This document shows, in pieces, positions 29,032 through 63,181 of a stretch of 64,000 nucleotides of DNA. The translations under genes and the position numbers were made by a program. This DNA is from Patescibacteria group bacterium. Its GTDB lineage: Bacteria > Patescibacteriota > Patescibacteriia > UM-FILTER-42-10. The notes under the pieces are model-generated. The model made no database searches, was not told where the DNA came from, and saw nothing but the letters and a program-made list of their open reading frames with translations. Where the stretch lies: positions 28,696 to 92,695 of the forward strand of contig JBAYKW010000003.1 in the NCBI GenBank assembly GCA_041664365.1. The letters run 5' to 3'. Every line of letters begins with the position of its first letter. Positions within the stretch are counted from its first letter, which is position 1.

Positions 29032-29043
29032 GCAAAATAAATA

Positions 29044-32976: not shown

Positions 32977-32988
32977 AGGGATAATAAT

Positions 32989-43203: not shown

Positions 43204-45753
43204 ATGCGTAATGATATCAGCGCATTTAGATTAGGCAACATAATGACTAAAGTAGTTGTTATTTTTGTTTTTACTGCCGCCGTGTTGTCGGCGGTTTTTT
43301 ATTTAGGTAGGAGCGGTAATTTAATAGAAAAAACAAGAGCAACAGATTCATATGCTGAAATAGTACAGCCATATGTAGGAAGTCAGGTTATTGCACATAC
43401 TGATGCTATGGAAGGGTCTAATTATGAATGGACAATAAACGCTGAACCGGTCCAAAGCGGAACAGTCCCAACAACATTTCTTTCGCATTTTGACGGTGAT
43501 TTACGAACGATAACAGGCGAGGAGCCGATAACCAGCAGTTCTGTTACATATGAATCAGTGAAATTCGGCCAGGGTATGGTAGGAACAGCAGATTATCCGA
43601 TGACCGGCAATCTTGACGTTACAAAGGGTACACTTGATCTTTGGCTGACACTAAAAAAACCGCTGGACGATCCGGAGTTTGATAGTAGTCCGTATATTCT
43701 TTATTATCACAATTCCAGTACAGGTGATTCTTTTATAGTGAATGTGCATAATACCGATGTAATAAGTTTTACCATGTATGATTTTTCTGACGGATGGGAA
43801 TTGGCTGTTCAGGCCAGCACGAGCAACTATACAATCCCAGTAGGAGTACCTTTTCACTTTGTAGCAACATGGTCTGTCACGGATAAAGTGGCAAAAGTTT
43901 ATTTGAATGGTGAACAGGTATCACGCAGAGATTATGAAGCGGACCAGCACTTTCCGGAAATCGTTGTCGGCGCGGAAAATGTTATGATTGGAAATACAAA
44001 TGTTGTAATGGATGAGATCAGGGTTTCAAATGATGTATTATCAACAGATCAGATAAAAGATTCTTATGTCCGTGGCATGCCGTATTCAGAAAGTGATATC
44101 TATTACAACGGGATTGTTAGTGAAGGTGATACTGTAGAATTGAGCGTTACTAACGGTGGTATTCCTCAGACGGACAGTGCAACTGTCGCCGGACAAAAAA
44201 TTACTGTAACCAGCCCGGCGGGATATTTCATACTAAATACAGACACATTTACTGTCAGCTTTAATACACCTACCGTCATGACTTGTCATTATGGAGCTGT
44301 GCCGGACTCATACGCTAACCTACCGCAGGTTACAGAAGGGACGGGGACTTCACATACAATTACATATAATGTAGATACTATTGTCGAACAATTTCCGGTT
44401 GCTATCAAATGTCACGGGGTGGGCGACGAAGCTGATGATTACGCGTTCTTCCGGCGCTACCGTGTATTGCCTGAGCCGAAACTGACCTATCCTAAACTTT
44501 CAAAGATTTGGTGGGGTAATACAGTATTAGATTCAGAAGTCCCATACCTTGCTAAATTTGATTTTGTTAATACATCAAAGAGTAATATTACAAAACCCGG
44601 ACCGATTAAACAACTCAAAACATTAAATCCGAACCAAGTTGTCCTTGTTTATCAGGATATGATAGGCGTTCAGAATTATGGAGGTGTAGCATATCATTCT
44701 GAATCGGATCGCGTTTTGGAGTCTTGGCGTCTTCAAAGTTCTGAGGTTCCGGGTGATTTTTGCCGAAACCTTTATTATGCGGGTAATGATCTTTATAATC
44801 TTAATGTTAATGTTCCTTTTGGTGAGCAGAGTGCAGATCATACGGAGAAGGATTTAATTGATCGCCTTTCCTATTTTGATGGTATTTGGTGGGATGTGGT
44901 CGGACCGGATTTTTGGTTTTTGTATGATTATAACGGAAACCCGGCAAGTTATGTTGAAAATTGTGATTTTGATAACGACGGCATAGATGAAGATTTAAAC
45001 ATCACAGCAGATCGGCTGAAAGCACAGCAGATTTGGGCGAACGGTATTCATGATATAATGTTGCGTTCACGCCAGAAATTGGGACAGGAAGTATTGATGG
45101 TAGGCAACGGTAATGCATCTGTGCATTCCGACTTCAACGGAAAACATCTCGAACATTTTTTCACCCCCAGCACATTTTTACAATATTTTGATCCGAATAA
45201 CGTGCAGGGGTTTCTCTATTGGCAGAATAATTCAAAAGAGCCGAGAATGAATGATAATTTGTATAAAATTAGCGGTTCGTATGGTACTCAGTCATTCTAT
45301 AAGTCTATGCGATATGGCTTGACCGCAAGTCTCTTAGCCGGTGTTTATTTTGATCCAAACTCGGGAGCTGAAAATGTGAACAATACATGGTGGTTTGATG
45401 AATACTGGATCGATACGGAAACGGCTAGACCGACTGACATTCTTGAAACTGGTAGCGGATATCTCGGTGAACCGCAAGGGGACTATTATATGGTACAATC
45501 AAATGTGTACCGCCGTGACTTTGAAAACGGGATAGTCCTGCTTAATAATACTTCCGGATCATCTACCATTAACCTCGGCGGAACATACCGGTATCTGGAT
45601 GCGACGAACGGCGGACAAGACCCAGTCGCTAATCTGGGCGGTGAAACAGATTCAGTTACCATGAGTTGGTACGATGGGAGAATATTACTTAATCCTTTAC
45701 CGCCGCAAGACAGTACACCACCGGGGACAATTAACGATTTATATACTGAATAG
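43204..45753 (+). CDS. Tandem paralog (copy 2) of the LamG-domain protein
   Basis: Same length (849 aa), about 80% identical by eye, same leader and promoter. Confidence 0.6.
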   Translation: MRNDISAFRLGNIMTKVVVIFVFTAAVLSAVFYLGRSGNLIEKTRATDSYAEIVQPYVGSQVIAHTDAMEGSNYEWTINAEPVQSGTVPTTFLSHFDGDLRTITGEEPITSSSVTYESVKFGQGMVGTADYPMTGNLDVTKGTLDLWLTLKKPLDDPEFDSSPYILYYHNSSTGDSFIVNVHNTDVISFTMYDFSDGWELAVQASTSNYTIPVGVPFHFVATWSVTDKVAKVYLNGEQVSRRDYEADQHFPEIVVGAENVMIGNTNVVMDEIRVSNDVLSTDQIKDSYVRGMPYSESDIYYNGIVSEGDTVELSVTNGGIPQTDSATVAGQKITVTSPAGYFILNTDTFTVSFNTPTVMTCHYGAVPDSYANLPQVTEGTGTSHTITYNVDTIVEQFPVAIKCHGVGDEADDYAFFRRYRVLPEPKLTYPKLSKIWWGNTVLDSEVPYLAKFDFVNTSKSNITKPGPIKQLKTLNPNQVVLVYQDMIGVQNYGGVAYHSESDRVLESWRLQSSEVPGDFCRNLYYAGNDLYNLNVNVPFGEQSADHTEKDLIDRLSYFDGIWWDVVGPDFWFLYDYNGNPASYVENCDFDNDGIDEDLNITADRLKAQQIWANGIHDIMLRSRQKLGQEVLMVGNGNASVHSDFNGKHLEHFFTPSTFLQYFDPNNVQGFLYWQNNSKEPRMNDNLYKISGSYGTQSFYKSMRYGLTASLLAGVYFDPNSGAENVNNTWWFDEYWIDTETARPTDILETGSGYLGEPQGDYYMVQSNVYRRDFENGIVLLNNTSGSSTINLGGTYRYLDATNGGQDPVANLGGETDSVTMSWYDGRILLNPLPPQDSTPPGTINDLYTE

Positions 45754-47989: not shown

Positions 47990-49624
47990 ATGAATAGAAT
48001 GCCTGAAAAGAAAATTAAGCATATTAATAACCAAGATTCATGGATGCTGGCTGAAGACATCCCTGATATTGATTTGTTTTTTTCTCAAATTTGGTTATCC
48101 TGCCTTGCTAATGAGTTCGCCCGTCCGGGAGGATATGCCAATGAAAAAGTTATGACTATTTTCAGAGGCTACCATATGTGGTTCTATTTTGGCGAGGAAG
48201 ATTCATTCAAACAGGGTCAGCATCTAGTTGAAAGGTTTGTTAAAAACCTTCAGTTTGCAGCGGAAGCGAATGAAGAGATTGTAAAATGGTCTGACAAACT
48301 GCGCTATTTTGCGCATAATCTCCCGCAGGAGAATTTAGAAAAACTCACTAGAAAACAGTTATGGTTTTTTTATCAGAGACACGATGAAGTTCACACAAAA
48401 TATTATCAGTGGTACTGGCTTCCGGTTGCAGCCGACATGTTCCACGGAAATTTTACCGAAGAGATGAAAAAATATTTGAAGTCGATTGGGGTGGAAAAAG
48501 ATAAAATAAATGAATATCTGGTAATTTTAACTGCTCCCGAAAACAAGTCTCTAATCCAGATTGAACGTGAAGAATTTCTGACTATCGCGTCAAAAATCCA
48601 GAAAGACCCGTATCATAAAAAACTTTTCCAGAGATTATATCAGGAATTTATGGAGTACAATGGATTGCCAAATGGGATGGAGAATCATGCACCCGAATAT
48701 GAATTGGCTTTTGAAAAGAAGGTTGCAGATATAAAGGATAATATTAAGATGGAAATTCTGAAATTAATTCAGGATCACTACATTAAATACCATTATGTTA
48801 GATATATGTGGATTGGCCGTGACGATATCTATACATATGATTATTATCTCAAAGAGTTAGTGAAGCTGATTGGTGAAGACGTTAACTTCGGGGAAATATT
48901 GAAAAATGAAATCAATCAGCATAAAAATTTGATAACAAAAAAGAATGCGCTAATTAAAAAACTGAAGATTGGTAAGGATTGGAGGGTAATTTTAGCCGGT
49001 TGGTCAGAATTCATGGTAACTAAAATCCATGGCCGGTTCGCGCAAATTTACACAATCTACAACATGCAGCCGGTTTTAGGTGAAATTGCCAGAAGGCTGG
49101 ATATTTCACTCATGCAGGCAAGATTTATGATGAAATCAGAGGTCAGAGATGCGTTGATTGGGGGTAAGAAACCGGATAAGAAAACATTGCAAAAAAGGAC
49201 GAAATTCTGCGTGTATTATGTAGAAAAGGGAATTGAGAAAATATATACCGGCAATCAGGCAAAAAAAATGGCTGAAAAAACCACAATGACTGTTAATGAG
49301 GAAATCACAGAAATAAACGGACAATGCGGATGCGTGGGGAGAGGGAAAGGGAAGGTCAGATTGATAATCAGGGCTTCTGACATGGGAAAAATGAAAAACG
49401 GCGATGTTTTAGTTTCAATCGCAACTAATCCTGGCATAGTCGCGGCAATGAAAAAAGCTTCGGCAATCGTAACTGATCAGGGCGGGATTACTTCGCATGC
49501 GGCTATTATTGCCAGGGAACTGGGTATTCCATGCGTAATCGGCACAAAAATTGCGACAAAAGTATTCAAAGACGGAGATTTGGTGGAGGTGGATGCTACT
49601 AAAGGAATGGTGAGAAAATTGTGA
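47990..49624 (+). CDS. Paralog 1: unknown N-domain of about 420 aa fused to a C-terminal PEP-utilizing-enzyme mobile (phosphohistidine swivel) domain
   Basis: C-terminus [55 protein letters not shown]. Confidence 0.65.
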   Translation: MNRMPEKKIKHINNQDSWMLAEDIPDIDLFFSQIWLSCLANEFARPGGYANEKVMTIFRGYHMWFYFGEEDSFKQGQHLVERFVKNLQFAAEANEEIVKWSDKLRYFAHNLPQENLEKLTRKQLWFFYQRHDEVHTKYYQWYWLPVAADMFHGNFTEEMKKYLKSIGVEKDKINEYLVILTAPENKSLIQIEREEFLTIASKIQKDPYHKKLFQRLYQEFMEYNGLPNGMENHAPEYELAFEKKVADIKDNIKMEILKLIQDHYIKYHYVRYMWIGRDDIYTYDYYLKELVKLIGEDVNFGEILKNEINQHKNLITKKNALIKKLKIGKDWRVILAGWSEFMVTKIHGRFAQIYTIYNMQPVLGEIARRLDISLMQARFMMKSEVRDALIGGKKPDKKTLQKRTKFCVYYVEKGIEKIYTGNQAKKMAEKTTMTVNEEITEINGQCGCVGRGKGKVRLIIRASDMGKMKNGDVLVSIATNPGIVAAMKKASAIVTDQGGITSHAAIIARELGIPCVIGTKIATKVFKDGDLVEVDATKGMVRKL

Positions 49625-49767: not shown

Positions 49768-50676
49768 ATGCCAGATCATTTTAAACCAGAACAACAATTA
49801 GCAAATCCAGAAAGAGAAAGGGAATATACTTCTAGAGTTTTACTTCATTTTTTTCGCCATGGAGAAAAGGAGTCTATCCCAGGTAGAACAAACGAAGAAC
49901 AGATGTTGACAGCCGCTGGCCGCCGTCAAGGTTTGGAAACTGGACTAATGAGACCGGAAGCTAAGCCATCAGCTATGGCCTTTGGTAGTGATATACCTAG
50001 ATCTCAAGAAATGGCCGGTTTTGACCTAGCCGGAGCTCAAAGACGAGAAGATATTAGTGGAGATGAATCATTGGATGAATTAAGGGATATATTAGACCAA
50101 GATATTAAAATAGGTACCAAATTAGCAGTAGATCCGCGACTGGGTTTTCATTATGACGATCCGGGATTATTAGCTGAGGCTACTAAAGCTTATAAAAATG
50201 GACAGGCATTAAAATTTGTTGTTGAGAATAGTGATGAAATAGCCAAAAATGCGGGTGATAACGATAGTACAACATATGCTAAATCAGCAGCTAATGTTTC
50301 AGAGATACTTAATAAGTATATGACAATTGCGTCCCGTTTTGATCAGATTGTCAGCGATGAGGATAAAAAAGAAAAATATAGTGATACGCTGGAGAGATTC
50401 ATGGGTTCGCATGCCGGTGTGATAGATGTTTTTTTATGTAAGGTAGTGGAAAAATTAAAAGGCGTGGAAGTGCGAAATAAATTAGTGCAAGCATTGAATA
50501 ATAACGGTTTTAATTTTGCTGAGGGTTTTGATATAGAAATTGATGTGATAAATGGTGAAACGCAAATGCGTATCAAGTATTCAAAACCAGAAGATGAACG
50601 CGGTGAAGCTTTTGAAATTGATGAGATGATTCCCAGGGAGATGCTAGAAGAAATGATGGAAGCGGGAGGAAAATAG
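49768..50676 (+). CDS. Histidine-phosphatase-superfamily (PGAM-like) protein, paralog 1
   Basis: RHG motif LLHFFRHGEKE with LTAAGRRQGLETG, and the distal motif GSHAGVI. Confidence 0.5.
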   Translation: MPDHFKPEQQLANPEREREYTSRVLLHFFRHGEKESIPGRTNEEQMLTAAGRRQGLETGLMRPEAKPSAMAFGSDIPRSQEMAGFDLAGAQRREDISGDESLDELRDILDQDIKIGTKLAVDPRLGFHYDDPGLLAEATKAYKNGQALKFVVENSDEIAKNAGDNDSTTYAKSAANVSEILNKYMTIASRFDQIVSDEDKKEKYSDTLERFMGSHAGVIDVFLCKVVEKLKGVEVRNKLVQALNNNGFNFAEGFDIEIDVINGETQMRIKYSKPEDERGEAFEIDEMIPREMLEEMMEAGGK

Positions 50677-50706: not shown

Positions 50707-52197
50707 ATGGCGGGAGCAGTAATAAGATCAGGAGAGTGGAGGATTAAGCCGTCCGGTAAATTACCAATTTTTTTGCGTTTTATGATTAACTCTAGCTTTA
50801 GCCATGAAATTGCCAATCAAGTTGGCTTTAAGAATCATATAGTAAATCGAGTTTATTTGAATCATATGATGTACTGGCCGGCAAAAGAATATGATGCTTT
50901 TGAAACAGAAATAATTAATAACTTAAAGCAGGATAATTATTGGCTTGATAACTATTGCAACAGAGAACTTAAAAATTCAGAAGAACTTTATAATTTAGGT
51001 TTAAAATTACAAAAAACTGATTGGTCAAAAAAAAGTAATTTAGAGATGAAAAAAACTTTAGATAGTCTGTTAAATAAATATAAATTGTTATCATGCTCAT
51101 GGTATGCACAGTACCCGATTGATATTTATTATGAAGATAGAATAGAGGAATTTTTGCTAAAATATATAAAAATATCCAACTCTGATTTTAGAAAATTAGT
51201 TTTGATTTTTACTGACCCTAAGGAAATGACTGAAGTAGCTGAAGAAAGGTGGAAATTAATAACAATCGCAAATAAATTTAAAAAGAATAAAGAAGATTTA
51301 AATAACTTATCAAAATCAGCAGACAATGATTTAAATAATCATTTAGATAGATTCGCTTATATCAATCGCGGTTTAGCTACCAGTAAGCCTTATACTAGAC
51401 AAGATATAATTGATAGGATAAAAGAGTCTTTGCATAGCAAAGAAGGTCTTAATAAATTGATCAATAATAGTTCGCCTGAAAAAGTAAAAGAGGATTATAA
51501 CTGGGCATTAAGTCAAATTAAACCAGAAGCTGATTTTAAACGTACAATTGAACAAGCTCGTTTACATTCCTATACTAGAAACAGAAGGGTAGAGGCTTTT
51601 TTTAGAGCCGACTTTGGAGCTAGTTTTATGTATCATGAAATTGCCAGAAGAAACAAATTCAACGAGGATTGGGTAATGGAATTATCTGTAGAGGAAATGT
51701 ATGGTGCTTTAGATGGTAAAATATTACCAGACAAGACCGAAATGCAACGTCGTTTTACCAACTATGCCATGGTTGTTGAAGATGCCAAAACAAAATTAGT
51801 TGTTGATCCTAAGGAAATAAAAAAGTTAGAAGAAAAATATAGTGTTGAGATTGTGGATTCTAATGAATTGCAAGGTAAAATGGCTAGTTTGGGCGGGATA
51901 ATCAGGGGGAGGGCCAAAATATGCTTAGACAAGAAAGATATTGGTAAAATAGAAAGAGGGGACATCTTGGTAGCTCAGTTTACTACGCCTGACTTTGTCC
52001 CAGCGATGGAAAAAGCTGCTGCGATTGTTGCTGATCAAGGCGGGCTATCTTCCCACGCCGCTATTGTTTCAAGAGAGCTGGGAGTGCCGTGCGTCATAGA
52101 TACTAAAAATGGTACTCGAATTATTAAGGACAATGATTTACTGGAGATCAATGCTCAAACAGGCTTAGTTAAAATATTAGAAAGAGCAAAAGAATAA
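50707..52197 (+). CDS. Paralog 2: unknown N-domain plus PEP-utilizing mobile domain
   Basis: C-terminus [49 protein letters not shown]. The N-domain shares the LTAP/TDP...E..L..IA motif with paralogs 1 and 4. Confidence 0.65.
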   Translation: MAGAVIRSGEWRIKPSGKLPIFLRFMINSSFSHEIANQVGFKNHIVNRVYLNHMMYWPAKEYDAFETEIINNLKQDNYWLDNYCNRELKNSEELYNLGLKLQKTDWSKKSNLEMKKTLDSLLNKYKLLSCSWYAQYPIDIYYEDRIEEFLLKYIKISNSDFRKLVLIFTDPKEMTEVAEERWKLITIANKFKKNKEDLNNLSKSADNDLNNHLDRFAYINRGLATSKPYTRQDIIDRIKESLHSKEGLNKLINNSSPEKVKEDYNWALSQIKPEADFKRTIEQARLHSYTRNRRVEAFFRADFGASFMYHEIARRNKFNEDWVMELSVEEMYGALDGKILPDKTEMQRRFTNYAMVVEDAKTKLVVDPKEIKKLEEKYSVEIVDSNELQGKMASLGGIIRGRAKICLDKKDIGKIERGDILVAQFTTPDFVPAMEKAAAIVADQGGLSSHAAIVSRELGVPCVIDTKNGTRIIKDNDLLEINAQTGLVKILERAKE

Positions 52198-52201
52198 GAC
52201 A

Positions 52202-53593
52202 ATGCTAAAAGATAAAGCTAGAATTAATTTGGATATCAAATTCATTGCCGACAAAACGTCGGGGATCTCCTGTGAACCATTTTTGGCTTCTATACCACTC
52301 AAAGTAGTTGAAGCTAACAATTATCGGCATTTAATTAAATTCCCTTTTTATGGTTTAAGTATCAATTGTCGTCAGAAGTATGCCGACGAATATATAGATG
52401 AAGCTAAATATGAAGGAGAGACTAATAAGCTATTAGTTTATGTAAGAAAAAATGGTCCTAAATATATACAAGATATTGCTACTTTAATTACTCAAGAAGC
52501 CAAGGATTTTAAGAAATATTCAGATAAGCTCATAGCCAAAATACCTAAACTTAGTAATCGCCAATTAGTTGACCAGATGACGTCTTATGTTAATCACTAT
52601 GCTTATCATTTTGGCTTAGGGGGGCCAACTTTTGTTTATGAAGCTATTTTATCGGCTCGGATCACTGAATCACTGTTTTTCCGGTACCAAGAGGCGCCGC
52701 AAATTATTAACCAGCTTTTGGCTGGTAAACACCAAAGTTTCATGGTGGATAGTGAAAAACTACTTTTAAAAATCAAGCAAGAAAAAAGTAAAAGACAAAA
52801 AGATGCTTTAATAAAAAAGTATATTAAAGAATTTTACTATATGGGCCCGGCTTATATCTACACAAAACCTTTGAATGCAAGTAGAGTCCTTAAGTTGGCA
52901 GCTACTGCTATGGCATCCAAACATCAATCATTTGAAAAAATAAAAGGTTTTAAACTTTTACCTGAGGAAAAATTAATTATCGATATTTTAAAACCGACGG
53001 AAATAATTCGTGATAAAAGAAAGTATATCAATCATATTGGTTCTTACACTTTATCTAGATTCTTAGATGAAGCAGTCAAAAGGTCTGGTGTGCCAATGAG
53101 TTTAGCTGTTAAGTCTTTCTGGTTTGAATACAGTGATTTAGTTTTTTCACCACAGATAATTAGGAGGAAACTGCAAAAAAGGAGTAAGGTCTCACTTGTG
53201 GCAGTTGATAATAATTTAATGTATCTAGAGGGAGATAGGATAAAAAACAGATTGCCGGTAAATAAAGGACAGCGATCTTTCATTGGTATTTCAGCATGCC
53301 AAGGAAAAACTACTGGTAAGGTACGCGTAATTCTGGGACCGTCAGATTTTAGAAAATTTAAGATAGGAGAGATACTGGTAACTGATATGACCAGGCCGGA
53401 TTTCATGCCAATTATCCGTCATGCTAGAGCCATTATTACAAATGAGGGAGGGCTTACTTCTCACGCGGCTGTTATTTCCAGGGAGCTTAATATTCCCTGC
53501 GTACTGGGCACTAAAGTTGCGACCAGAATATTAAAGGACGGAGATTTCGTGGAAGTAGACGCAAATCGCGGTATAATAAAAAAATTAAAATAG
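52202..53593 (+). CDS. Paralog 3: unknown N-domain plus PEP-utilizing mobile domain
   Basis: C-terminus GEILVTDMTRPDFMPIIRHARAIITNEGGLTSHAAVISRELNIPCVLGT. Confidence 0.65.
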   Translation: MLKDKARINLDIKFIADKTSGISCEPFLASIPLKVVEANNYRHLIKFPFYGLSINCRQKYADEYIDEAKYEGETNKLLVYVRKNGPKYIQDIATLITQEAKDFKKYSDKLIAKIPKLSNRQLVDQMTSYVNHYAYHFGLGGPTFVYEAILSARITESLFFRYQEAPQIINQLLAGKHQSFMVDSEKLLLKIKQEKSKRQKDALIKKYIKEFYYMGPAYIYTKPLNASRVLKLAATAMASKHQSFEKIKGFKLLPEEKLIIDILKPTEIIRDKRKYINHIGSYTLSRFLDEAVKRSGVPMSLAVKSFWFEYSDLVFSPQIIRRKLQKRSKVSLVAVDNNLMYLEGDRIKNRLPVNKGQRSFIGISACQGKTTGKVRVILGPSDFRKFKIGEILVTDMTRPDFMPIIRHARAIITNEGGLTSHAAVISRELNIPCVLGTKVATRILKDGDFVEVDANRGIIKKLK

Positions 53594-53597
53594 TTTT

Positions 53598-55103
53598 ATG
53601 AAATATGTAGAAGGTCTGCTGAAAAAAAATCTTAAAAAATGGAGTGGTAAAAAATGGTACCATCAGCGGTTTGATGGAGCGCCATATTTAATCCATACAA
53701 TAGCAGAAGCGGAAATAACTGTAGATATCAAAAAGAAAAAGGGAACGCATAATGCTGTCCATTATTGCTTTTTTAATGATGGCAAAGCTGACTGGTATAT
53801 TGAAATAGAAGATATGAAGAGGGTCTACTCGGCTGTATTGAAGGCCGGTAAAAAAAATTATCAACTGGGTCGTACTATGATTTCTGCTTGGCAGCCACAG
53901 CAAGATAGTTTTTACAAAAAGTGTTTGGAAATTGATAAAGTCAACTTAAAAATTCTAAAAAATCAAGAGTTAATAAAGTTACATGATGAGTTTCTGGAAA
54001 TAATCTTACATAAAAACAGTTGTAGTTCTATTATCGATGGATTCGCTTTAGGAACGGATGAAATTGTAGCCGAAATGATACAAAAAATATACGATGTCAA
54101 TCCAATAAATAAAAAATTAAGATTTGCGGAAGTATTTTCTATTCTGACTGCTCCAGTTCATTTGTCTTTTATTAATGAAGCGGAAATAGAGCTCTTGCAA
54201 ATTGCAAAGGCTGTTAAGAGGGGAGAAAATAAAAACAAATTATTGAAGGAGTATCAGAAAAAATATTTCTGGATTAGAAACAATTATATTGATGCCAACA
54301 TACTGACATTCAATCATTTCGCGAATGAATTGAAAAAGATTCTTTCACAAAAGACCAATATTGATAAAAAGATAAATAATATTAAAAATACACCGACCAG
54401 AAGTAGGCTGTTAAAAGATAAATTAATTGTAGAATTGAAAATAAGCAAGGAATTAAAATTTTTATTAAAAACATCAGAGGATTTTACATATTGGCAAGAC
54501 GAAAGAAAGCGGGGAACATTCTGGATTGCGCATTATACCTATTTGATATTAAAAGAGATTTGTCGTCGTACGGGTATTACTCCGGAAGAAATAAAATATT
54601 TATCACCACGCGAAGTAAGTGAAATATTTAAAAATAAGGTAAATAGAAAATTATTACAACAAAGAATCAAAGCTTGTGTTTTTTATTGGGATTTAAATGG
54701 ACACGAAGCAGTGGTCGGTAAGGATTATAAAAATGTGATGCATGAAATATTAGGAAATAAAAAGTTATCAGATGTTGATGATTTTCGAGGGCTGACTGCC
54801 TGCATGGGAAAGGCACGCGGTCAGGTTAGAATAGTCCATAGTGCTAGGGAAGTTAATAAAGTTGAGCAAGGTGATATATTAGTTGCTGTTATGACTAGGC
54901 CGGATTATGTACCGGCAATGAAGAAAGCGGCGGCTATTATAACTGATGAGGGAGGCTTAACTTGCCACGCAGCTATAATATCGCGGGAGTTAAATATCCC
55001 TTGTATTATCGGGACTAAGATTGCCACCAAAGTTCTCAAAGATGGTATGGAAGTAGAGGTCAATGCAAATCATAGTTGGGTAAAAATTATCAAAAAAATA
55101 TGA
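53598..55103 (+). CDS. Paralog 4: unknown N-domain plus PEP-utilizing mobile domain
   Basis: C-terminus GDILVAVMTRPDYVPAMKKAAAIITDEGGLTCHAAIISRELNIPCIIGT. Confidence 0.65.
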   Translation: MKYVEGLLKKNLKKWSGKKWYHQRFDGAPYLIHTIAEAEITVDIKKKKGTHNAVHYCFFNDGKADWYIEIEDMKRVYSAVLKAGKKNYQLGRTMISAWQPQQDSFYKKCLEIDKVNLKILKNQELIKLHDEFLEIILHKNSCSSIIDGFALGTDEIVAEMIQKIYDVNPINKKLRFAEVFSILTAPVHLSFINEAEIELLQIAKAVKRGENKNKLLKEYQKKYFWIRNNYIDANILTFNHFANELKKILSQKTNIDKKINNIKNTPTRSRLLKDKLIVELKISKELKFLLKTSEDFTYWQDERKRGTFWIAHYTYLILKEICRRTGITPEEIKYLSPREVSEIFKNKVNRKLLQQRIKACVFYWDLNGHEAVVGKDYKNVMHEILGNKKLSDVDDFRGLTACMGKARGQVRIVHSAREVNKVEQGDILVAVMTRPDYVPAMKKAAAIITDEGGLTCHAAIISRELNIPCIIGTKIATKVLKDGMEVEVNANHSWVKIIKKI

Positions 55104-55117
55104 TTTAGGAAATTGAA

Positions 55118-56509
55118 ATGAATAGTAAAGCAAACAAATATAATTGGAAAAAATTGTGGGCAAGAAATTATACCCCATTTATGATGGAGTCATTTATTCA
55201 TGTTTTTCAAAAAACAGCCAATTTAAATATGTCTAATAATAAACTAGTTGTCCCGGATGGTAAGCTCTATGCGATTTATTTTGAAGAAAAGGAATTTGGA
55301 CAACTGACTGAAAATTATAAACGTTTGCTTCTGAAGAAAGACATAAAAGACTTTGCAGTTGCTTATGAACAGTCGTTTAAAAATTTTAATAATTGGTCTA
55401 AGAAAATTACTGATAGAGATTTTAGCAAACTTACTAATCAGCAGTTAGCTCGTTTTATCAAAGTCCTTCATAAAAAACTCATCATATTTTCCGAGCAGCA
55501 ATTTTGCGCTTTTCTGGTTTTAGAAGGTATGGGTCGAGAAATTGAGCGTATTTTTGCTGAGCAGCCTGAAATTTTGCATGCCATAGGTACTCCCTACCGC
55601 TTTACCAAAATAGTAAAAGCAAGGGTTGAATTACTGAAATTAAAAACGAGAGGAAAAGTAACAAACAAAGATTTACAAAATTATATTCGTCGAAATTCCT
55701 GGCTTTCAGTTTACCAATTTACTGACAATTTACTGACAGTCGATAATGTTAAAGAAGAATTATCTGGGATAAAACATTCTCAGACCGAATTAAAACGTCT
55801 AATCACTAACCAAAAAAAAGATTTAAAGCAATACAAAGTATTTGTAAAAAATCTTAAGGACAAAAAACTAAAAAAGATGGTGGCGATAGTTCATGCTTTT
55901 GCCTATCTAAAAGAAATGCGTGACGATTATAGACGTCATGCTTATTACTATTATGCTGGATTTTGGCAAGAAATTAGCAAGAGGTTGAGTATTTTGTTCA
56001 CAGAAACAAATTATTTGGTATCTGAAGAGCTACAAGAAGTATTAATGGGATCAAAAAAAATAAACTATAAGAAATTGGTAAAAGAAAGAAAAAATAGTTA
56101 CGCACTCGTTCTTAAAGAAGGCAAGCTAAGTATTTATAGTGGTAAAAAAGCAAATACAATAACTGCGTTGATTAAACCAATAGCACACAGTAAGGAATTA
56201 TCGGGTTATACTGCCTGCCAAGGGAAAGCTAAGGGCAGGGTAAATATAATTTCACATCATGGTGAACTGAAAAAATTTAAAAAAGGAGATATTTTAGTAA
56301 CTAGCATGACTCATCCTGAGTTTATAAGTATAATGAAAAAAGCATCGGCAATTGTTACTGATGAAGGGGGAATTACTTGCCATGCTGCTATTGTGTCTAG
56401 AGAATTAGGGATTCCTTGTATAATTGGCACGAAAATTGCCACCAAAGTATTTAAAGACGGGGATATGGTGGAAGTGGATGCAACGAAAGGAATAGTAAAA
56501 AAGCTGTAA
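55118..56509 (+). CDS. Paralog 5: unknown N-domain plus PEP-utilizing mobile domain
   Basis: C-terminus [49 protein letters not shown]. Confidence 0.65.
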
Positions 56510-56545: not shown

Positions 56546-57481
56546 ATGCCAGAACCCGGATTTAAACCAAAACAGCCCGGTCTTCAACCAGAACAACAAG
56601 AGCGAAAAGAGTGGGGTCGCAACGTAGCGCTTACATTAAAAATAATGCGTCATGGGGATCGTGACAAACAAAAAAACTTAAGTGAATATGGCCGAAAGGA
56701 AACCCGTCAGCGTGCAAAGGATTTAGGCATTAAACCGGATGATTTTGATGCAATCAAAGCAATCGGTTCAAGTGCCGGTCCGGAAAGAGAAATAGAAGTA
56801 AATGGCAAAAAAGTTTCTATGGGCAGGGCTTTAGAAACTGCCCATATCTATGCGGACGAGCTGGATAGTGAAAATGAATTTGTGACTCGTGTAAATGATT
56901 TGTTGAATTTTGAAACGATCAAAACGCCGGCTCCTCATGACCATACTGCGGTTTATAATTCTAATCTGCCGGAAAATTATGATGATTTAGATGAAGTAGC
57001 GAAGGCGAAGGCGGCGGAAGATGCGCAGATCGCTACAGTTAATTACGTATTCAGCTTGCATAATCCGGAAGCGGAAGCATGGAAAAGGGAACAGGCAGGT
57101 GCTTTTGCTTATTTGGTGGAGCATTATCAAAAACTAGTAAAAAAATTAAAAAATAATTCAAGAGTATTAATACCCGCCGGCAGTCATGGCCCAACTATTG
57201 AAATTTTACTTCAACAGGCTTTAGTCATTAAGAAAGAAGACGGCACAGAACAGGTTGGCTTTGACAATATTGATGATATTGGCGGGCCTTCGCAGCCTTC
57301 TGATTCTTATAATATTGAAATTGTTACTGATGAAAATGGTGAATTCCAGGATTTAGTGGTGACCTTTGATGATCCAGACAGACCGCAATTTGAAATGCGG
57401 TTGGACGGGGATAGAATAAGAGAGCTTGCCGAATTTTATGAAGAACTTCATCCTGTGGAAAGATATAACCCAGGGGGATAA
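56546..57481 (+). CDS. Histidine-phosphatase-superfamily (PGAM-like) protein, paralog 2
   Basis: LKIMRHGDRD with LSEYGRKETRQRAKDLG, and the distal motif GSHGPTIE. The N-terminus is paralogous with 49768-50676 (MP..FKP.QQ). Confidence 0.5.
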   Translation: MPEPGFKPKQPGLQPEQQERKEWGRNVALTLKIMRHGDRDKQKNLSEYGRKETRQRAKDLGIKPDDFDAIKAIGSSAGPEREIEVNGKKVSMGRALETAHIYADELDSENEFVTRVNDLLNFETIKTPAPHDHTAVYNSNLPENYDDLDEVAKAKAAEDAQIATVNYVFSLHNPEAEAWKREQAGAFAYLVEHYQKLVKKLKNNSRVLIPAGSHGPTIEILLQQALVIKKEDGTEQVGFDNIDDIGGPSQPSDSYNIEIVTDENGEFQDLVVTFDDPDRPQFEMRLDGDRIRELAEFYEELHPVERYNPGG

Positions 57482-57516
57482 ATTCAGAATGACAGAGAGT
57501 ATTTAAAAACAAAAAA

Positions 57517-57542
57517 CTCGGCCAGATCAGCCGGGTTTTTTT
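57517..57542. terminator. Weak bidirectional terminator between convergent genes
   Basis: Short GC hairpin cggc-cagatca-gccg, flanked by an A-run and a T-run. Confidence 0.35.
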
Positions 57543-57555
57543 AATTTGGTTTATT

Positions 57556-57927
57556 CTATTGCTTTGGTGCAGAGTTAAGAATATTGGAAATCAACTTTTT
57601 AATATCATCTATATGGATATTGTCCTTTTGCAGGAAATATTTGACACCTAAAGCTTTAACTTTTTCTTCGTTACCGTCTTGGCCTAGAGATGAAAGGACA
57701 ATAACAGGTATCGTTGATTCTTTATTTTGTTTTAAGAAATCAAAACCCCCCATCACTGGCATCATAATATCCAGCATAATTACGTCCGGCTGGAATTCTT
57801 TTACCAGATCCAAACCTGCTTGCCCATTATCCGCTGTCCTGACATCGTACCCTTCAGGAACAAGGGATGATTTAATAACTTGTTGAATAGCGCTATCATC
57901 ATCAATTACTAAGATTTTTTTTGTCAT
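57556..57927 (-). CDS. Standalone CheY-like response-regulator receiver domain
   Basis: KILVIDDDSAIQQVI...DVIMLDIMMPVMGGFDFLK...PVIVLSS. Confidence 0.85.
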   Translation of the reverse strand: MTKKILVIDDDSAIQQVIKSSLVPEGYDVRTADNGQAGLDLVKEFQPDVIMLDIMMPVMGGFDFLKQNKESTIPVIVLSSLGQDGNEEKVKALGVKYFLQKDNIHIDDIKKLISNILNSAPKQ

Positions 57928-57933
57928 AATAAT

Positions 57934-59682
57934 TTATTCTAAAGGTAAGATAAAGAAAAATGTACTACCCTTATCTTCAGTTGATTCAACGCTAACCAGT
58001 CCGCCGTGCGCTTCAATGATTCCTTTCGCAATAACCAGACCTAAACCGGTTCCTTTTGCCTGGGTCTTTTTTTGCCCTTCCGCCTGCTCAAATTTATTAA
58101 ACAACTTTTTAATCTGGTCTTTTCGAATACCAGAGCCATTGTCTGTTACTGCACAAATTATGACATCTTTTTCTCGTTTTTGCAAAACCTCAGATGAATT
58201 TGAAATAAACCATTTGATTCCCGCCTGCTTCGCTTTGCTTTCTATGTCCTCATCTTTTTTCAGAAGCAATGTTTGAACTTTCACGACTCCTTTTTCTTCC
58301 GTGAATTTAATGGCATTGGAAAGTAAATTGTTTAGAACTTGAATTATCTCTTTTTCATCAAATGGAACCTGTTCAATATCCGGTCCCCAGTAAGAATTTA
58401 AAACAATATTTTTTTCACTTGCTAAACTTTGGAAAAAATTGATTCTTTCTTCAATAACTCTTTTTAAATCTCCCTTTGACTTAGTGACAATAAATTTACC
58501 CGCTTCCAGCTTGGCAACATCCAACAAATCGTTAACCAGTTCTAAAATGTTAGTTGTACTGCCGTGGATCATTTTAGCGGATTGTAAAAACTGGTCTTTC
58601 GGCATTTTTTTATCCTGCAGCATTTCGGAAATCAACCGAATGCCGTTTAAAGGAGACCGTAAATCGTGCACCATCATGTTGGTAAAGTCTTCTTTGACTT
58701 TTTCCAGTTCCTTATCATGGGTTATGTCGTGCAGAATAATTACGGCGCCGAGTGTCTCACTGTTTTTATCTTTAACCGGTGAAAACAAAATCCGGATATA
58801 TCGGTGTTGGATGTATGTTTCTTCGATTACTTCCTGCCGATTCAATTTAATACATTCTTCCAGTTTTGTCCTGAAGTCTACTTTTCCTTCAAAAGCTTCG
58901 ATTATGTCAAATATGGATGTTTCTTTATTCTCGATACCTAGAAGATCCTTAACCTTGGGATTTGTGACATAAACCCTGTTGTCTTTATCAATCATTAGGA
59001 CTCCGTCAGCCATACTGACTACCATGGCGTTAAGCTTGCTTTGCTCCGAGTCTAATACATCCTGCAGACGTGTTACGGCATTGGATGCTTGCGCGGTTAT
59101 CTTATACAGAATAGTCATTTCATCTTCCTTATATAGTCCGGTTTTGGTGCTTGATACATTTAATATTCCCACTACTTTGTTGCCAACAGTTAATGGGATA
59201 TTAAAAAATGAGCTCAATGGCTCATTATTATCATCATCCAAGATGGTACCGGCAATTACTTCTTCGATTGTTCTATTCTGATAATTCTGATCTGTCAGGA
59301 CTGATAGTGCTGCTACCATTTTTCCCTTTACATCTTCCACGAATTTAGGACTGACGCTCTCTTCAACTTCACACTTGAAAAGCAATTCCTTCTTTTGAGT
59401 ATCTTCCAAAATGTAAGAGGTAGTGGAATAATCAATCAGTTCTTTTAACGATCCGGTGATAATATCGGCGATTCTCTGGGTGTTTAAAGAATACCCTGCC
59501 CTTTCCCCGATTTCTTTAAGTATGGAAAGTTCATACATGCGCCGGTTATTTTCTGATTCTCTTTTTTCACTTTCAGCTTTTAATGTGCCTCTTAATTTTC
59601 TGATATAAACGCAAAAACTGACTATAACCGCAATGATTACAATCGAAAAAACAAATATCACTGATACATTCGCTTGATCCAT
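57934..59682 (-). CDS. Membrane-anchored sensor histidine kinase: TM, GAF/PAS-like region, HisKA, HATPase_c
   Basis: H-box MMVHDLRSPLNGI; N, G1 and G2 boxes (LLSNAIKFT, VTDNGSGI, GTGLGLVIAKG). Confidence 0.85.
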   Translation of the reverse strand: MDQANVSVIFVFSIVIIAVIVSFCVYIRKLRGTLKAESEKRESENNRRMYELSILKEIGERAGYSLNTQRIADIITGSLKELIDYSTTSYILEDTQKKELLFKCEVEESVSPKFVEDVKGKMVAALSVLTDQNYQNRTIEEVIAGTILDDDNNEPLSSFFNIPLTVGNKVVGILNVSSTKTGLYKEDEMTILYKITAQASNAVTRLQDVLDSEQSKLNAMVVSMADGVLMIDKDNRVYVTNPKVKDLLGIENKETSIFDIIEAFEGKVDFRTKLEECIKLNRQEVIEETYIQHRYIRILFSPVKDKNSETLGAVIILHDITHDKELEKVKEDFTNMMVHDLRSPLNGIRLISEMLQDKKMPKDQFLQSAKMIHGSTTNILELVNDLLDVAKLEAGKFIVTKSKGDLKRVIEERINFFQSLASEKNIVLNSYWGPDIEQVPFDEKEIIQVLNNLLSNAIKFTEEKGVVKVQTLLLKKDEDIESKAKQAGIKWFISNSSEVLQKREKDVIICAVTDNGSGIRKDQIKKLFNKFEQAEGQKKTQAKGTGLGLVIAKGIIEAHGGLVSVESTEDKGSTFFFILPLE

Positions 59683-59997: not shown

Positions 59998-60324
59998 TTA
60001 TCCTTGGGTAATTTTTTTGGCTTCTTCACCGGCAGATTTTAGCGCCTTCAATGTCCAAACAAATGTTACAAACCAGCCAGCAAAAACTGGCAGTACCCAA
60101 TAAACTCCTTTGGCATTTTCAAACATATATGCGGTACTGACTATCCCCAGGGAATACATCTCTACCAACATAGTATAAACCAAAACTTTTGTTATTTTAC
60201 CGACCAGCGATCCTTTAACTAACTGGTAAACGCTTCTGCCTTTGACAAAAATATAGATTGAGCCACCAATCAATATTGGCCAACCAATGAATAATATTAC
60301 ATTTCTCATAAGTTCTAGTGACAT
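59998..60324 (-). CDS. Small 3-TM membrane protein, tandem paralog A
   Basis: About 60% identical to the adjacent ORF (..VGKITK.LVY.MLVEMYSLGIVST.Y...). Confidence 0.5.
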   Translation of the reverse strand: MSLELMRNVILFIGWPILIGGSIYIFVKGRSVYQLVKGSLVGKITKVLVYTMLVEMYSLGIVSTAYMFENAKGVYWVLPVFAGWFVTFVWTLKALKSAGEEAKKITQG

Positions 60325-60335
60325 AAATTTATTAG

Positions 60336-60662
60336 TTAATTATTTGTTATTTTTTTAGTCTCCTCGCTAGATATTTTTATTGTCTTAATACTCCACATAA
60401 AAACCGCTCCCCAAATAATAAACACCGGCAGAACAACATAAACACCTTGAGCGTTATCAACGAGGTACACAGTACTGACAATTCCCAGAGAATACATCTC
60501 AACGAGCATCGAATAAACCAGTGCCTTGGTGATTTTACCTACCAGAGAGTCTTTGATTACGGAATATACTTGCTTGCCCACCTTAAAGATGTAAATACTG
60601 AAAAAAAACAATACTGGCCATCCAACCGCCAGTATAATGTTTCGAACAGTATCTAAATTCAT
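60336..60662 (-). CDS. Small 3-TM membrane protein, tandem paralog B
   Basis: Paralog of 59998-60324. Confidence 0.5.
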   Translation of the reverse strand: MNLDTVRNIILAVGWPVLFFFSIYIFKVGKQVYSVIKDSLVGKITKALVYSMLVEMYSLGIVSTVYLVDNAQGVYVVLPVFIIWGAVFMWSIKTIKISSEETKKITNN

Positions 60663-60891
60663 TGAATATTACGTTATTTGTGTGAATACCATCTTATTGT
60701 ACCATAAGTTAGCAAAAAAATCAAGTGGAATCAACTATTTATTATATGTACTGATTGTATGGTTATTGAGTATTTGGCAATCTAATTTATCCGCAACACT
60801 TCGAGAAATTATTCAAGCTAGAATATGAGTTACTATTCACACGGTATGTTGTTAATTATTATCACTTATGCTATAATATAAAAGATTTTTC

Positions 60892-61839
60892 ATGGCAAAA
60901 TTTACCAAAACTTTTTCACAATTAAATAGAAAAAGTGTAGCAGAAGCGGGAGGAAAGGGCGCACAACTGGGTGAGATGACAAAGGCAAAATTGCCAGTTC
61001 CACCAGGGTTTGTGGTACTTTCCGGCACATTTGAGCGTTTTTTGGAAGAAACGGACCTGGATGTAGAGATAGACGCATTGTTAAAAAAGGTAAATTTGAG
61101 TGATATTAACAGTGTGGACCGGGTTTCCAATGCAATCCGGGAATTAATCCACGAATTAGTTGTCCCGGATGATATCGCAAAAGAGATCCAGACCGCTTTT
61201 AATAAATTGAAAACCAAATATGTTGCTGTCCGTTCTTCCGCGACAGCCGAGGATTCATCCGTTGCATCCTGGGCGGGCGAACTGGAAACATATTTGTTTA
61301 TTACTAAAGCAAATTTGGTTGAAACAGTGCGTAAATGTTGGTCATCGCTGTTTACCCCCCGCGCGATTTTTTACCGCTTTGAGAAAAAACTGCACAAGAC
61401 CAAAGTAAGTGTCGGCGTCGTAGTCCAAAAGATGATTAATTCGGAAATATCCGGCGTGACATTTACAGCCCACCCGGTTACCAACGATCTGGATCAGATG
61501 GTGATTGAGGCGGGGTTCGGCCAGGGTGAATCAATCGTCTCAGGACAGATTACGCCGGATACCTATGTGGTAGATAAGAAAAATAAAATCATTTTAGATA
61601 TTAATATCTCTGAGCAAAAGAAAATGATTGTTCAGAATGGTAGTAAGGGAACAAAAACAGTCACTGTTGTAAAATCAATGCAGGAAAAGCAGAAACTCAC
61701 AGGCAAACAAATCATTCAACTTGCCGAAGTCTGCAAAAGAATAGAAAAACATTATAACCATCCCCAAGACATAGAATGGGCGATGGAAAAAAATAAAATT
61801 TATATTACGCAATCAAGACCAATAACAACACTGAAATAA
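60892..61839 (+). CDS. Standalone PEP-synthase/PPDK N-terminal ATP-grasp (PPDK_N, PEP/pyruvate-binding) domain protein with no His or TIM domains
   Basis: AGGKGAQLGEM..PVPPGFVV, VAVRSSATAEDSSVASWAGELETYL, DIEWAMEKNKIYITQSRPIT. The ORF stops where the swivel domain begins in PpsA and in rifampin phosphotransferase. Confidence 0.7.
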   Translation: MAKFTKTFSQLNRKSVAEAGGKGAQLGEMTKAKLPVPPGFVVLSGTFERFLEETDLDVEIDALLKKVNLSDINSVDRVSNAIRELIHELVVPDDIAKEIQTAFNKLKTKYVAVRSSATAEDSSVASWAGELETYLFITKANLVETVRKCWSSLFTPRAIFYRFEKKLHKTKVSVGVVVQKMINSEISGVTFTAHPVTNDLDQMVIEAGFGQGESIVSGQITPDTYVVDKKNKIILDINISEQKKMIVQNGSKGTKTVTVVKSMQEKQKLTGKQIIQLAEVCKRIEKHYNHPQDIEWAMEKNKIYITQSRPITTLK

Positions 61840-61840
61840 A

Positions 61841-63181
61841 ATGGAGGATCAAAAAAACAAAATCAACACAGCAAAATCGGTGAAAGTAAATGTTGCTTCC
61901 GGAAAGAAAGACGATGAAGAAAAGCAGATTTTAAAAGGTGCCAGAATTCTAATTAAAGACCAAAAAGGGCAGTACAGCTATGTAAAAGGAGCCAAATTAA
62001 TGGGTGAGGACGAGGTTGTTGTTGCTTCTGCGCCGGTGGTTTCCGCGCCAACAAAGAGTAAAATAGATCCATCCATTATCAAAAAAGCGGTTGCGCAGTT
62101 GGCTAATCAAAAGATGATAACGCCATCCGTTAAACCGGCCCCCCTACCAAGAAAACAGGACGAAGTAAGTACGGTAACAGCTTCTCAGCTAAAACCGGTT
62201 TTTCAAGATCGGATGGTTCCGAATAAAGGAGTTAACGCAAGTTTTTATTTTGATGTAGAGGATGAGGAGGAAGTGAAAAAAATGCATAATGAGGAAATTT
62301 CCTCATCGGCCAGAACTATTGATTACGGCACAGTTGTTAAAGAGATTGCAAATCAGGTCGGATTAAATTTTACTGATGAATCTTTGCAAAAAAGATTTGA
62401 AAGCCTAATAACATCCCGTCTGAGAGATATTCGAACTTCCGTCCAATTAAGAGAGCTTTTGGTCCGTTCAAAAAAAGTCGGCGGTTTAGAACTTGAACCT
62501 GAGATTGCGGAATCGATCGTGAAAATAACCGCAGAGAAGGCGCTGAGTTTTCATAATGAAACCGAGATCAAAAAAATTGAATACCGGCAGATGATGAAGT
62601 TGCAGGAAGCGGAAAAAGAGAGAGAGCAGCAGGAAAGGATGAGAAAAGCAGTAGCAAATGAACAGATTAAGAAAGCGGTTCTCAATCTGCATTTGCAGAA
62701 GAAAAATGAATTAGAAAATGCGGTCAAACCGGAACCACAGCCGGTCATTAACAAGCCGATTATTGATAGACGGATTCCAATTATCCCAAAGATGCAAAGA
62801 CCGATGCCGGTTTTTGACAGCAGGCCAAAAATTGTGGATATCAAGACGCCGCCAAGATTAATGGGTCCGATAGAGGAAATAAGAAGCTTGAATTTGGTGG
62901 ATTTTAGAAGGCTCGGCGGGAACCCCCAGCAGTCAATTGAAAAAATAAAAGAGAAAGTTGATCTGTTGGAAGAGGAATCATATACCAAGAAAGCGGAAGC
63001 GATCCAAGCCTGGAAGAAATCGGAGATTTATCAGATATATCTAGACATCGGTAATGAAGGTATGAATAAAGGAAAATCCGTCCAGGATGTGATAACAAGC
63101 AGGAAAATGGACGGCCGTTCCTATCTGACCGATGAAGAGTTTGAAGCGGTAGGGGATCTAAATAGACAGTTAAGATTTTAA
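61841..63181 (+). CDS. Hypothetical K/E-rich protein
   Basis: ORF directly abutting upstream and downstream genes. Confidence 0.4.
   Translation: MEDQKNKINTAKSVKVNVASGKKDDEEKQILKGARILIKDQKGQYSYVKGAKLMGEDEVVVASAPVVSAPTKSKIDPSIIKKAVAQLANQKMITPSVKPAPLPRKQDEVSTVTASQLKPVFQDRMVPNKGVNASFYFDVEDEEEVKKMHNEEISSSARTIDYGTVVKEIANQVGLNFTDESLQKRFESLITSRLRDIRTSVQLRELLVRSKKVGGLELEPEIAESIVKITAEKALSFHNETEIKKIEYRQMMKLQEAEKEREQQERMRKAVANEQIKKAVLNLHLQKKNELENAVKPEPQPVINKPIIDRRIPIIPKMQRPMPVFDSRPKIVDIKTPPRLMGPIEEIRSLNLVDFRRLGGNPQQSIEKIKEKVDLLEEESYTKKAEAIQAWKKSEIYQIYLDIGNEGMNKGKSVQDVITSRKMDGRSYLTDEEFEAVGDLNRQLRF

Follow-up and report, generated by a model that had tools for sequence, protein, structure and literature searches.

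The 64,000-nucleotide stretch of a Patescibacteria group bacterium analysed here (GenBank assembly GCA_041664365.1, contig JBAYKW010000003.1, positions 28,696 to 92,695; hereafter the window, with coordinates counted from its first letter) contains at 60892-61839 an open reading frame (ORF) whose product is a stand-alone ATP-grasp domain of the PPDK_N type. Five paralogous genes, each encoding a protein with a C-terminal His swivel domain, lie 4.4-12.9 kb upstream on the same strand. We consider it probable that the 60892-61839 product, referred to below as the target, supplies the ATP-grasp part of a split small-molecule dikinase, of the type of rifampin phosphotransferase (RPH), with the swivel paralogs as its partners; that one ATP-grasp protein is shared by all five of them we hold with somewhat less confidence. 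The genes at the centre of this reading are the following.

60892-61839, + strand: target ORF, ATG to TAA, 315 aa, stand-alone ATP-grasp (PPDK_N)
47990-49624, + strand: paralog 1, 544 aa, substrate-binding region and His swivel (PF00391 E 2.3e-25, residues 469-539)
50707-52197, + strand: paralog 2, 496 aa, substrate-binding region and His swivel (PF00391 E 7.5e-24)
52202-53593, + strand: paralog 3, 463 aa, substrate-binding region and His swivel (PF00391 E 3.8e-25)
53598-55103, + strand: paralog 4, 501 aa, substrate-binding region and His swivel (PF00391 E 1.6e-25)
55118-56509, + strand: paralog 5, 463 aa, substrate-binding region and His swivel (PF00391 E 6.6e-27); the copy that was modelled

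The ATP-grasp protein

The target matches Pfam family PF01326 (PPDK_N) with an E value of 5.7e-99 (331.9 bits against a cut-off of 27) over positions 3-312 of the 328-position profile, and this is the sole domain that a Pfam scan finds in it. Both motifs quoted in an earlier reading made from the sequence only, YVAVRSSATAEDSSVASWAGELETYLF and DIEWAMEKNKIYITQSRPITTLK, are found in the protein, and its description there as a complete ATP-grasp module holds. The C-terminus, ...QSRPITTLK, aligns to residue 363 of the phosphoenolpyruvate (PEP) synthase 8a8e, whose chain runs on from that point; in a sequence search of the PDB the target is co-extensive with 5hv6, the ATP-binding domain of RPH crystallised alone. 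PEP synthase 8a8e is also the best match in that search (E 3.5e-74), ahead of Listeria RPH (5hv1/5fbs, E ~1e-61) and HpeI (9goj, E 6.7e-51).

In the alignment with the PDB match, residues K22, R117, T136 and E297 of Listeria RPH (RPH-Lm) correspond to K22, R114, T133 and E295 of the target, and K22, R114 and E295 are invariant over 20 stand-alone homologues. Mutants of RPH-Lm point to a catalytic role at the ATP site for Lys22, Arg117 and Thr136, while Glu297 is a Mg2+ ligand in the crystal whose replacement by Ala leaves the enzyme active (PMC4844700). The AlphaFold2 model of the target (predicted local distance difference test score, pLDDT, 85.7) has the two-lobed ATP-grasp fold. [quoted passage not shown] Values of pLDDT below 50 occur only at residues 120-122, inside a low-confidence loop (~120-130) whose counterpart is disordered in the crystals of HpeI and of RPH-ADP (PMC12167813). 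To judge from sequence and model together, the ATP-grasp domain is complete, with its catalytic residues intact.

The word 'truncated', which the sequence-only reading had used of this domain, does not survive comparison. In a search of 5.8 billion proteins the best 120 clusters are without exception PPDK_N-only proteins of 308-365 aa, 64-100% identical to the target, with most of these closest stand-alone homologues at 64-70%. Every source taxon that is named belongs to the Patescibacteria, with Kerfeldbacteria, Falkowbacteria and Buchananbacteria among them. All 20 stand-alone homologues aligned have the same C-terminal RPITTL. The target is thus best regarded as a member of an old, highly conserved stand-alone family, for which 'truncated' is a misleading term. 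An exact-identity lookup of the target protein (P0001) matched no record, and the gene contexts described below for its family are the contexts of homologues.

The five upstream paralogs

The catalytic His of the swivel is invariant in all five paralogs, within the motif TD(E/Q)GGxxxHAA, which fits the T/SxxGGxxxH pattern of partner proteins in two-component RPH-type dikinases, and a self-built hidden Markov model (HMM) of the swivel, run over the window, finds these five known copies only. The N-terminal regions of the paralogs, ~350-430 aa long, have no Pfam match, and a Pfam scan finds no PEP-utilizers_C or TIM-barrel domain in any partner protein. Identity among the paralogs is ~18% in the N-terminal region and ~50% in the swivel, which points to old duplications followed by divergence of the substrate parts. 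Paralog 1 is the sole copy kept in one relative (locus L003 in our numbering of homologous loci), where its orthologue is 72% identical.

The nature of the N-terminal region is suggested by the AlphaFold2 model of paralog 5, built with 46 homologues (pLDDT 93.5, predicted TM score 0.90). Foldseek aligns the whole chain of this model to RPH-Lm only (5fbt, 5fbu, 5hv1; E 1.7e-13, TM 0.55-0.60), all other matches being confined to the swivel (TM ~0.2). The same structural match to full-length RPH alone has been reported for HpeH by Dexter et al. (PMC12167813). Since the modelled copy matches only RPH over its full chain, each paralog is predicted to consist of the RIF-binding-like domain and the swivel of RPH, and the target to be the ATP-grasp domain that the paralogs lack.

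Relation to known dikinases

RPH is the type member of a broad group of dikinases acting on small molecules (PMC4844700); the wider RPH-type, 'PEP synthase-like' family also takes in PigC/RedH. HpeHI of Rhodococcus, CreHI of Corynebacterium and the phenylphosphate synthase PpsAB of Thauera/Aromatoleum are split RPH homologues (PMC12167813), with HpeI (PDB 9GOJ), CreI and PpsB as their ATP-grasp components (PMC12167813). The characterised split enzymes are 1:1 pairs that phosphorylate phenolic compounds (PMC12167813). The genes described here resemble them in having the ATP-grasp domain on a chain of its own (~315-390 aa) that carries no His domain, in having partners composed of a RIF-binding-like domain and a C-terminal His swivel, and in the clustering of the component genes, which in the window are 4.4-12.9 kb apart and belong to separate transcription units; the target aligns with HpeI over its full length. 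They differ in ratio, context and host: whereas the known pairs sit in gene clusters for aromatic catabolism in Actinobacteria and Proteobacteria, here a single ATP-grasp gene goes with five highly diverged partners (1-5 or more in relatives) in the reduced genomes of Patescibacteria. Among those ORFs of the window that were scanned against Pfam, no genes for aromatic catabolism appeared.

Placed end to end, the target and a paralog reproduce the order of RPH (RPH-Lm; 5FBS/5FBT/5HV1), namely ATP-grasp, substrate-binding and swivel domains. In structural alignments the target is 38-39% identical to RPH's ATP-grasp domain, with the ATP-site residues conserved, but the modules are encoded by separate genes and the substrate-binding domain is ~14% identical. 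We found nothing that points to rifamycin as a substrate. PEP synthase (8A8E, 2OLS) gives the best ATP-grasp sequence score and has an identical end to its ATP-grasp domain and a similar swivel; its swivel, however, follows the ATP-grasp domain directly and is in turn followed by the PEP/pyruvate TIM barrel, whereas the fused relatives of the target have the RPH order. The target should not be named as PEP synthase, RPH or PigC/RedH, because its NCBIfam scores fall far below the respective cut-offs: 330 bits against 598 (NF005057) and 319 against 740 (TIGR01418) for PEP synthase, 292 bits for the target and 70 for one paralog against 999 (NF041857) for RPH, and likewise far below for the PigC/RedH model.

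Co-occurrence and fusion in relatives

The sequence-only reading had proposed the target as the obvious candidate for the nucleotide-binding partner of the five swivel paralogs 4-13 kb upstream, and had asked for a co-occurrence analysis. Both the co-occurrence and the fusions found in relatives lend this proposal support. Among 84 classifiable non-redundant loci, swivel-only genes occur within 10 kb at 14 of the 15 stand-alone PPDK_N loci and at none of the 69 fused loci (Fisher 4.7e-15, a value that overstates independence, the compared loci being phylogenetically related). The single stand-alone exception sits near a contig end. L077 lies near a contig end, and L083 (Gracilibacteria), being broken up when translated with table 11, is to be ignored. 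In each context recovered for a stand-alone homologue (L001, L003, L005, L007, L008, L010, L011, L012), the swivel-only genes within 10 kb number from one to five. In L007, L010, L011 and L090 PPDK_N and swivel-only genes are immediate neighbours on one strand, and the link to swivel genes is retained where that to genes of a type IV secretion system (T4SS) is lost (L007, L008, L011, L012, L090). One PPDK_N domain stands against five swivel proteins in the window, and single clusters (L007, L008, L011, L090) have one PPDK_N per 3-5 paralogs.

Fused relatives were surveyed among the best 150 of the 50%-identity representatives of a 1.84-billion-protein library, which are 51-64% identical to the target. 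About 130 of these 150 are fused and ~19 are PPDK_N-only, some of the latter too long for the simple stand-alone form. In the fused chains a single ATP-grasp domain is followed, as in RPH, by a spacer of 240-400 aa and then a swivel. The swivel modules number two, three or four in more than 35 of them, with chain lengths of up to 1836 aa, and in one (P0151) three substrate/swivel modules follow the ATP-grasp domain; counts of the substrate-binding domain are lower bounds, as the self-built substrate-binding HMM is weak and many fused relatives score as ATP-grasp and swivel ('N-S') with the spacer unmatched. Multi-headed chains of 1100-1836 aa at 54-59% identity include P0129, P0138, P0144, P0147, P0151, P0157, P0193 and others, as well as L013:384-4319; we found no description of multi-module dikinases of this type.

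In the fused chains the substrate-binding domain begins 8-10 residues past ...RPITTL, so that the target and a paralog together are colinear with a fused chain; this linker is precisely where the target stops and the paralogs start. This also refines the sequence-only reading's statement that the target ends where His-domain-containing enzymes continue. The alignment at residue 363 of 8a8e bears it out, but the break corresponds to the junction of ATP-grasp and substrate-binding domains and not to a junction with the swivel, because the closest fused relatives have the order of RPH and not that of PEP synthase.

In a neighbour-joining tree without support values, all but one of the 26 stand-alone sequences (25) fall together in a group that also encloses one fused sequence; in the same tree this group stands beside a large fused group and away from the split examples L071, L075 and L079. 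The target is 33% identical to HpeI (structural alignment), 38-40% to these three split examples and 51-64% to the fused relatives. No sign was found of common descent with the HpeI/CreI/PpsB clade through the same fission. Since the target is nearer to fused proteins of the Patescibacteria type than to those of the HpeI type, and groups with the former in the tree, the sequences suggest that the gene split once, separately from the HpeI/PpsB/CreI lineage.

Neighbouring genes and local layout

Within and around the array, and between it and the target, the window has the following further features.

40548-43097 and 43204-45753: tandem 849-aa paralogs with Laminin_G_3 and GHL15 (putative glycosyl hydrolase) domains
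49768-50676, + strand: 302-aa protein inside the array, RHG motif, possible histidine phosphatase (sub-threshold His_Phos_1 match, E 0.052, residues 26-105)
56546-57481, + strand: 311-aa protein closing the array, with the RHG motif that it has in common with 49768-50676; no Pfam match
57511-57541, + strand: terminator-like hairpin closing the array transcription unit, 12-bp stem then T run
57556-59682, - strand: response regulator and GAF-PAS-HisKA-HATPase histidine kinase, between array and target
59998-60324 and 60336-60662, - strand: tandem paralogous 108-aa predicted membrane proteins, no family assignment, between histidine kinase and target
60849-60877, + strand: promoter-like site (TTGTTA, 17 nt, TATAAT, upstream TG), 15 nt 5' of the target ATG, 10/12 consensus positions
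61841-63181, + strand: 446-aa hypothetical protein, starting 1 nt past the target stop in another frame; PrgI-like gene next

Whether the two RHG-motif proteins (49768-50676 and 56546-57481) are members of the dikinase system is uncertain from their sequences. They were considered as divergent extra PPDK_N genes and rejected as such, BLASTP finding no similarity and the RHG motif being present instead. A weak homologue of 56546-57481 lies inside the array of L091, and genes of the His_Phos_1 or HAD type are interleaved with the arrays of L001, L005, L008 and L091. These interleaved HAD and histidine-phosphatase-like genes hint that the phosphate group may be transient and its addition a passing activation, as it is in the Hpe pathway. 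In L008 a 705-aa chain (L008:5266-7383) combines a HAD hydrolase with a substrate-binding/swivel module, which places a putative phosphatase and a dikinase carrier together.

The promoter-like site in front of the target is a consensus match alone, the whole scan having given no more sites than shuffled sequence. L001 and L003 have the response regulator and histidine kinase in the same place. At 83% identity in L003, the histidine kinase is better conserved than the dikinase genes; the pair is a possible regulator of the cluster. The tandem 108-aa membrane-protein genes are likewise conserved in L001 and L003. At the other end, the tandem 849-aa paralogs are followed by an FG-GAP/fn3 protein and a type IV pilin-like protein just upstream of paralog 1, an order that is the same in L003.

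Downstream of the target the sequence-only reading had noted a hypothetical protein followed by T4SS genes, which agrees with the 446-aa ORF, the PrgI-like gene after it and the TraC-like and VirB4-like genes of relatives. Members of the 446-aa family are always followed by genes of the PrgI-like, TraC-like and VirB4-like types. In L093 and L094 the 446-aa homologue directly follows homologues of the giant ORFs that occupy 19645-34350 of the window (3128, 1310 and 453 aa), while in the lineage of the window the giant genes are separated from the secretion cluster by ~27 kb, in which the array and the target are found.

Proposed mechanism and alternatives

What could be the reaction of such a system? 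We infer a physical interaction between the target and the paralogs, its sharing among all five, and a chemistry that is drawn by homology with RPH (PMC4844700) and HpeHI (PMC12167813). The 315-aa target would bind MgATP, and the C-terminal swivel domain of a partner would dock on it. The partner His would attack the beta-phosphate and become pyrophosphorylated, after which the gamma-phosphate would be hydrolysed. The phospho-His swivel would then return to its own RIF-binding-like N-terminal domain and phosphorylate the small molecule bound there, for a predicted net reaction of ATP + acceptor + H2O -> AMP + Pi + acceptor-phosphate. A single ATP-grasp protein would in this way serve five paralogs in trans, the substrate domains having diverged and the docking swivels being alike.

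We favour such a one-to-many arrangement because the ratio is 1:5 in the window, because relatives have one PPDK_N per 1-5 partners, and because fused chains with several modules exist. HpeH does not form a stable complex with HpeI, and their reaction speeds up linearly with either component (PMC12167813), a behaviour compatible with an ATP-grasp protein that has several partners. With moderate confidence we extend this to a hub-and-spoke system, in which one conserved free charger would supply 1-7 or more substrate-specific carriers, sister lineages would hard-wire the same relation as multi-headed chains, and the platform would be interleaved with HAD and histidine phosphatases.

Several points, beside the relatedness of the compared loci, weigh against the partnership and the sharing proposed here. 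The partnership is predicted from genes and modelled structures, and the count of one PPDK_N covers the window, so that a second ATP-grasp gene may lie elsewhere in the genome. The target and the array are in separate transcription units, with the terminator, the opposite-strand two-component system and the two membrane-protein genes intervening, and the target appears to head an operon that runs into the T4SS-like genes. Finally, the arrays of L091 (at least six swivel ORFs) and L092 (seven) show no PPDK_N in the available sequence. The L091 array occupies L091:1-11389, and L092 is a 13.7-kb contig binned as Nanoarchaeota. These arrays could reflect mis-binning, transfer between the Candidate Phyla Radiation (CPR) and DPANN, or a distant ATP-grasp gene. 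Swivel arrays adjoin separate CTP_transf_like and Flavokinase genes in two distant lineages (L090:12907-14004, L091:8082-12165); the two genes may represent a split RibF, and their position could be a hint to the substrate or mere synteny.

The arrays of L091 and L092, with no PPDK_N nearby, and the single paralog of L003 also fit a different arrangement, in which the ATP-grasp protein pairs with one paralog or with an unseen partner and the other swivels are charged by a second ATP-grasp protein or by exchange with phosphorylated metabolites. The known split dikinases, being 1:1 pairs (PMC12167813), set a precedent for it, and HpeH alone can move phosphate between a phosphorylated substrate and a substrate (PMC12167813). 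We regard this explanation as unlikely, though the most serious of those considered: the window and four relatives (L007, L008, L011, L090) have one PPDK_N for, respectively, five and 3-5 paralogs, the fused chains that join two to four modules to a single ATP-grasp domain show that one-to-many use is viable in the family, and the swivel domains of all five paralogs are alike and keep the His motif.

The proximity of the target to the secretion genes invites another explanation, by which the ATP-grasp protein would work with the operon of 446-aa, PrgI-, TraC- and VirB4-like genes, energising or modifying a component of the apparatus, and not with the paralogs. The gap of 1 nt and the lack of a terminator before the 446-aa gene, the promoter-like site upstream of the target, and the order PPDK_N, 446-aa homologue, PrgI, kept in the window and in L001, L003, L005 and L010, all agree with it. 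The linkage, however, dissolves in both directions: the 446-aa/PrgI/TraC/VirB4-like cluster occurs without PPDK_N in L093 and L094, and PPDK_N without the secretion cluster in L007, L008, L011, L012 and L090. Moreover, the 446-aa family has 29 members as against thousands in the PPDK_N family, and no protein of the secretion cluster has a phospho-acceptor swivel domain. We therefore reject a secretion role as the primary role of the target, judging it very improbable; since target and secretion cluster each occur without the other in relatives, their adjacency is lineage-specific synteny.

That the target is a non-functional or mis-assembled remnant of a PEP synthase or RPH gene, shortened by sequencing error, frameshift or nonsense mutation, as a stop exactly at a domain boundary and a next ORF beginning 1 nt on in another frame might lead one to suspect, has a negligible chance of being correct, because all 120 of the closest clusters, which come from many independent assemblies, keep the stand-alone form with its invariant C-terminus, a conservation that excludes a sequencing frameshift, the catalytic residues are intact, the 446-aa ORF, the place where the sequence-only reading had advised looking for a fused His domain, has neither a swivel or other dikinase domain nor any Pfam or NCBIfam match, and in relatives the target and 446-aa ORFs overlap by varying amounts with both retained.

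Implications

Split dikinases of the RPH type were already known; what the proposed partnership of the target with the swivel paralogs would add is the one-to-many ratio with diverged partners, a probable independent fission, the prevalence in Patescibacteria and the multi-headed fused relatives. By full-text search, in a searchable literature that is incomplete, we found no description of one charger with several partners in CPR/Patescibacteria. The sole related mention found is a survey of the CPR resistome, which tallied rph-like matches as resistance genes (PMC8651080). Our observations caution against annotating such genes as 'phosphoenolpyruvate synthase' or as rifampin-resistance genes. 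The arrangement also offers a clean test of partner recognition in trans by swivel-domain enzymes.

The locus and its relatives point to a far larger family, rich in Patescibacteria, in which the ATP-grasp domain is shared in trans, as here, or in cis, as in the multi-headed chains. In the window the system, taken as the five paralogs, the two putative phosphatases and the ATP-grasp gene, occupies ~9.5 kb. This would be a large investment if the genome is of ~1 Mb (compare the 1.18-Mb contig of L003), and the phosphorylated substrates are therefore probably important to the organism; they probably matter for a symbiotic, scavenging lifestyle. If the hub-and-spoke proposal is true, it would represent a platform used by ultra-small symbionts with genomes of ~1 Mb to capture, activate or detoxify varied small molecules.

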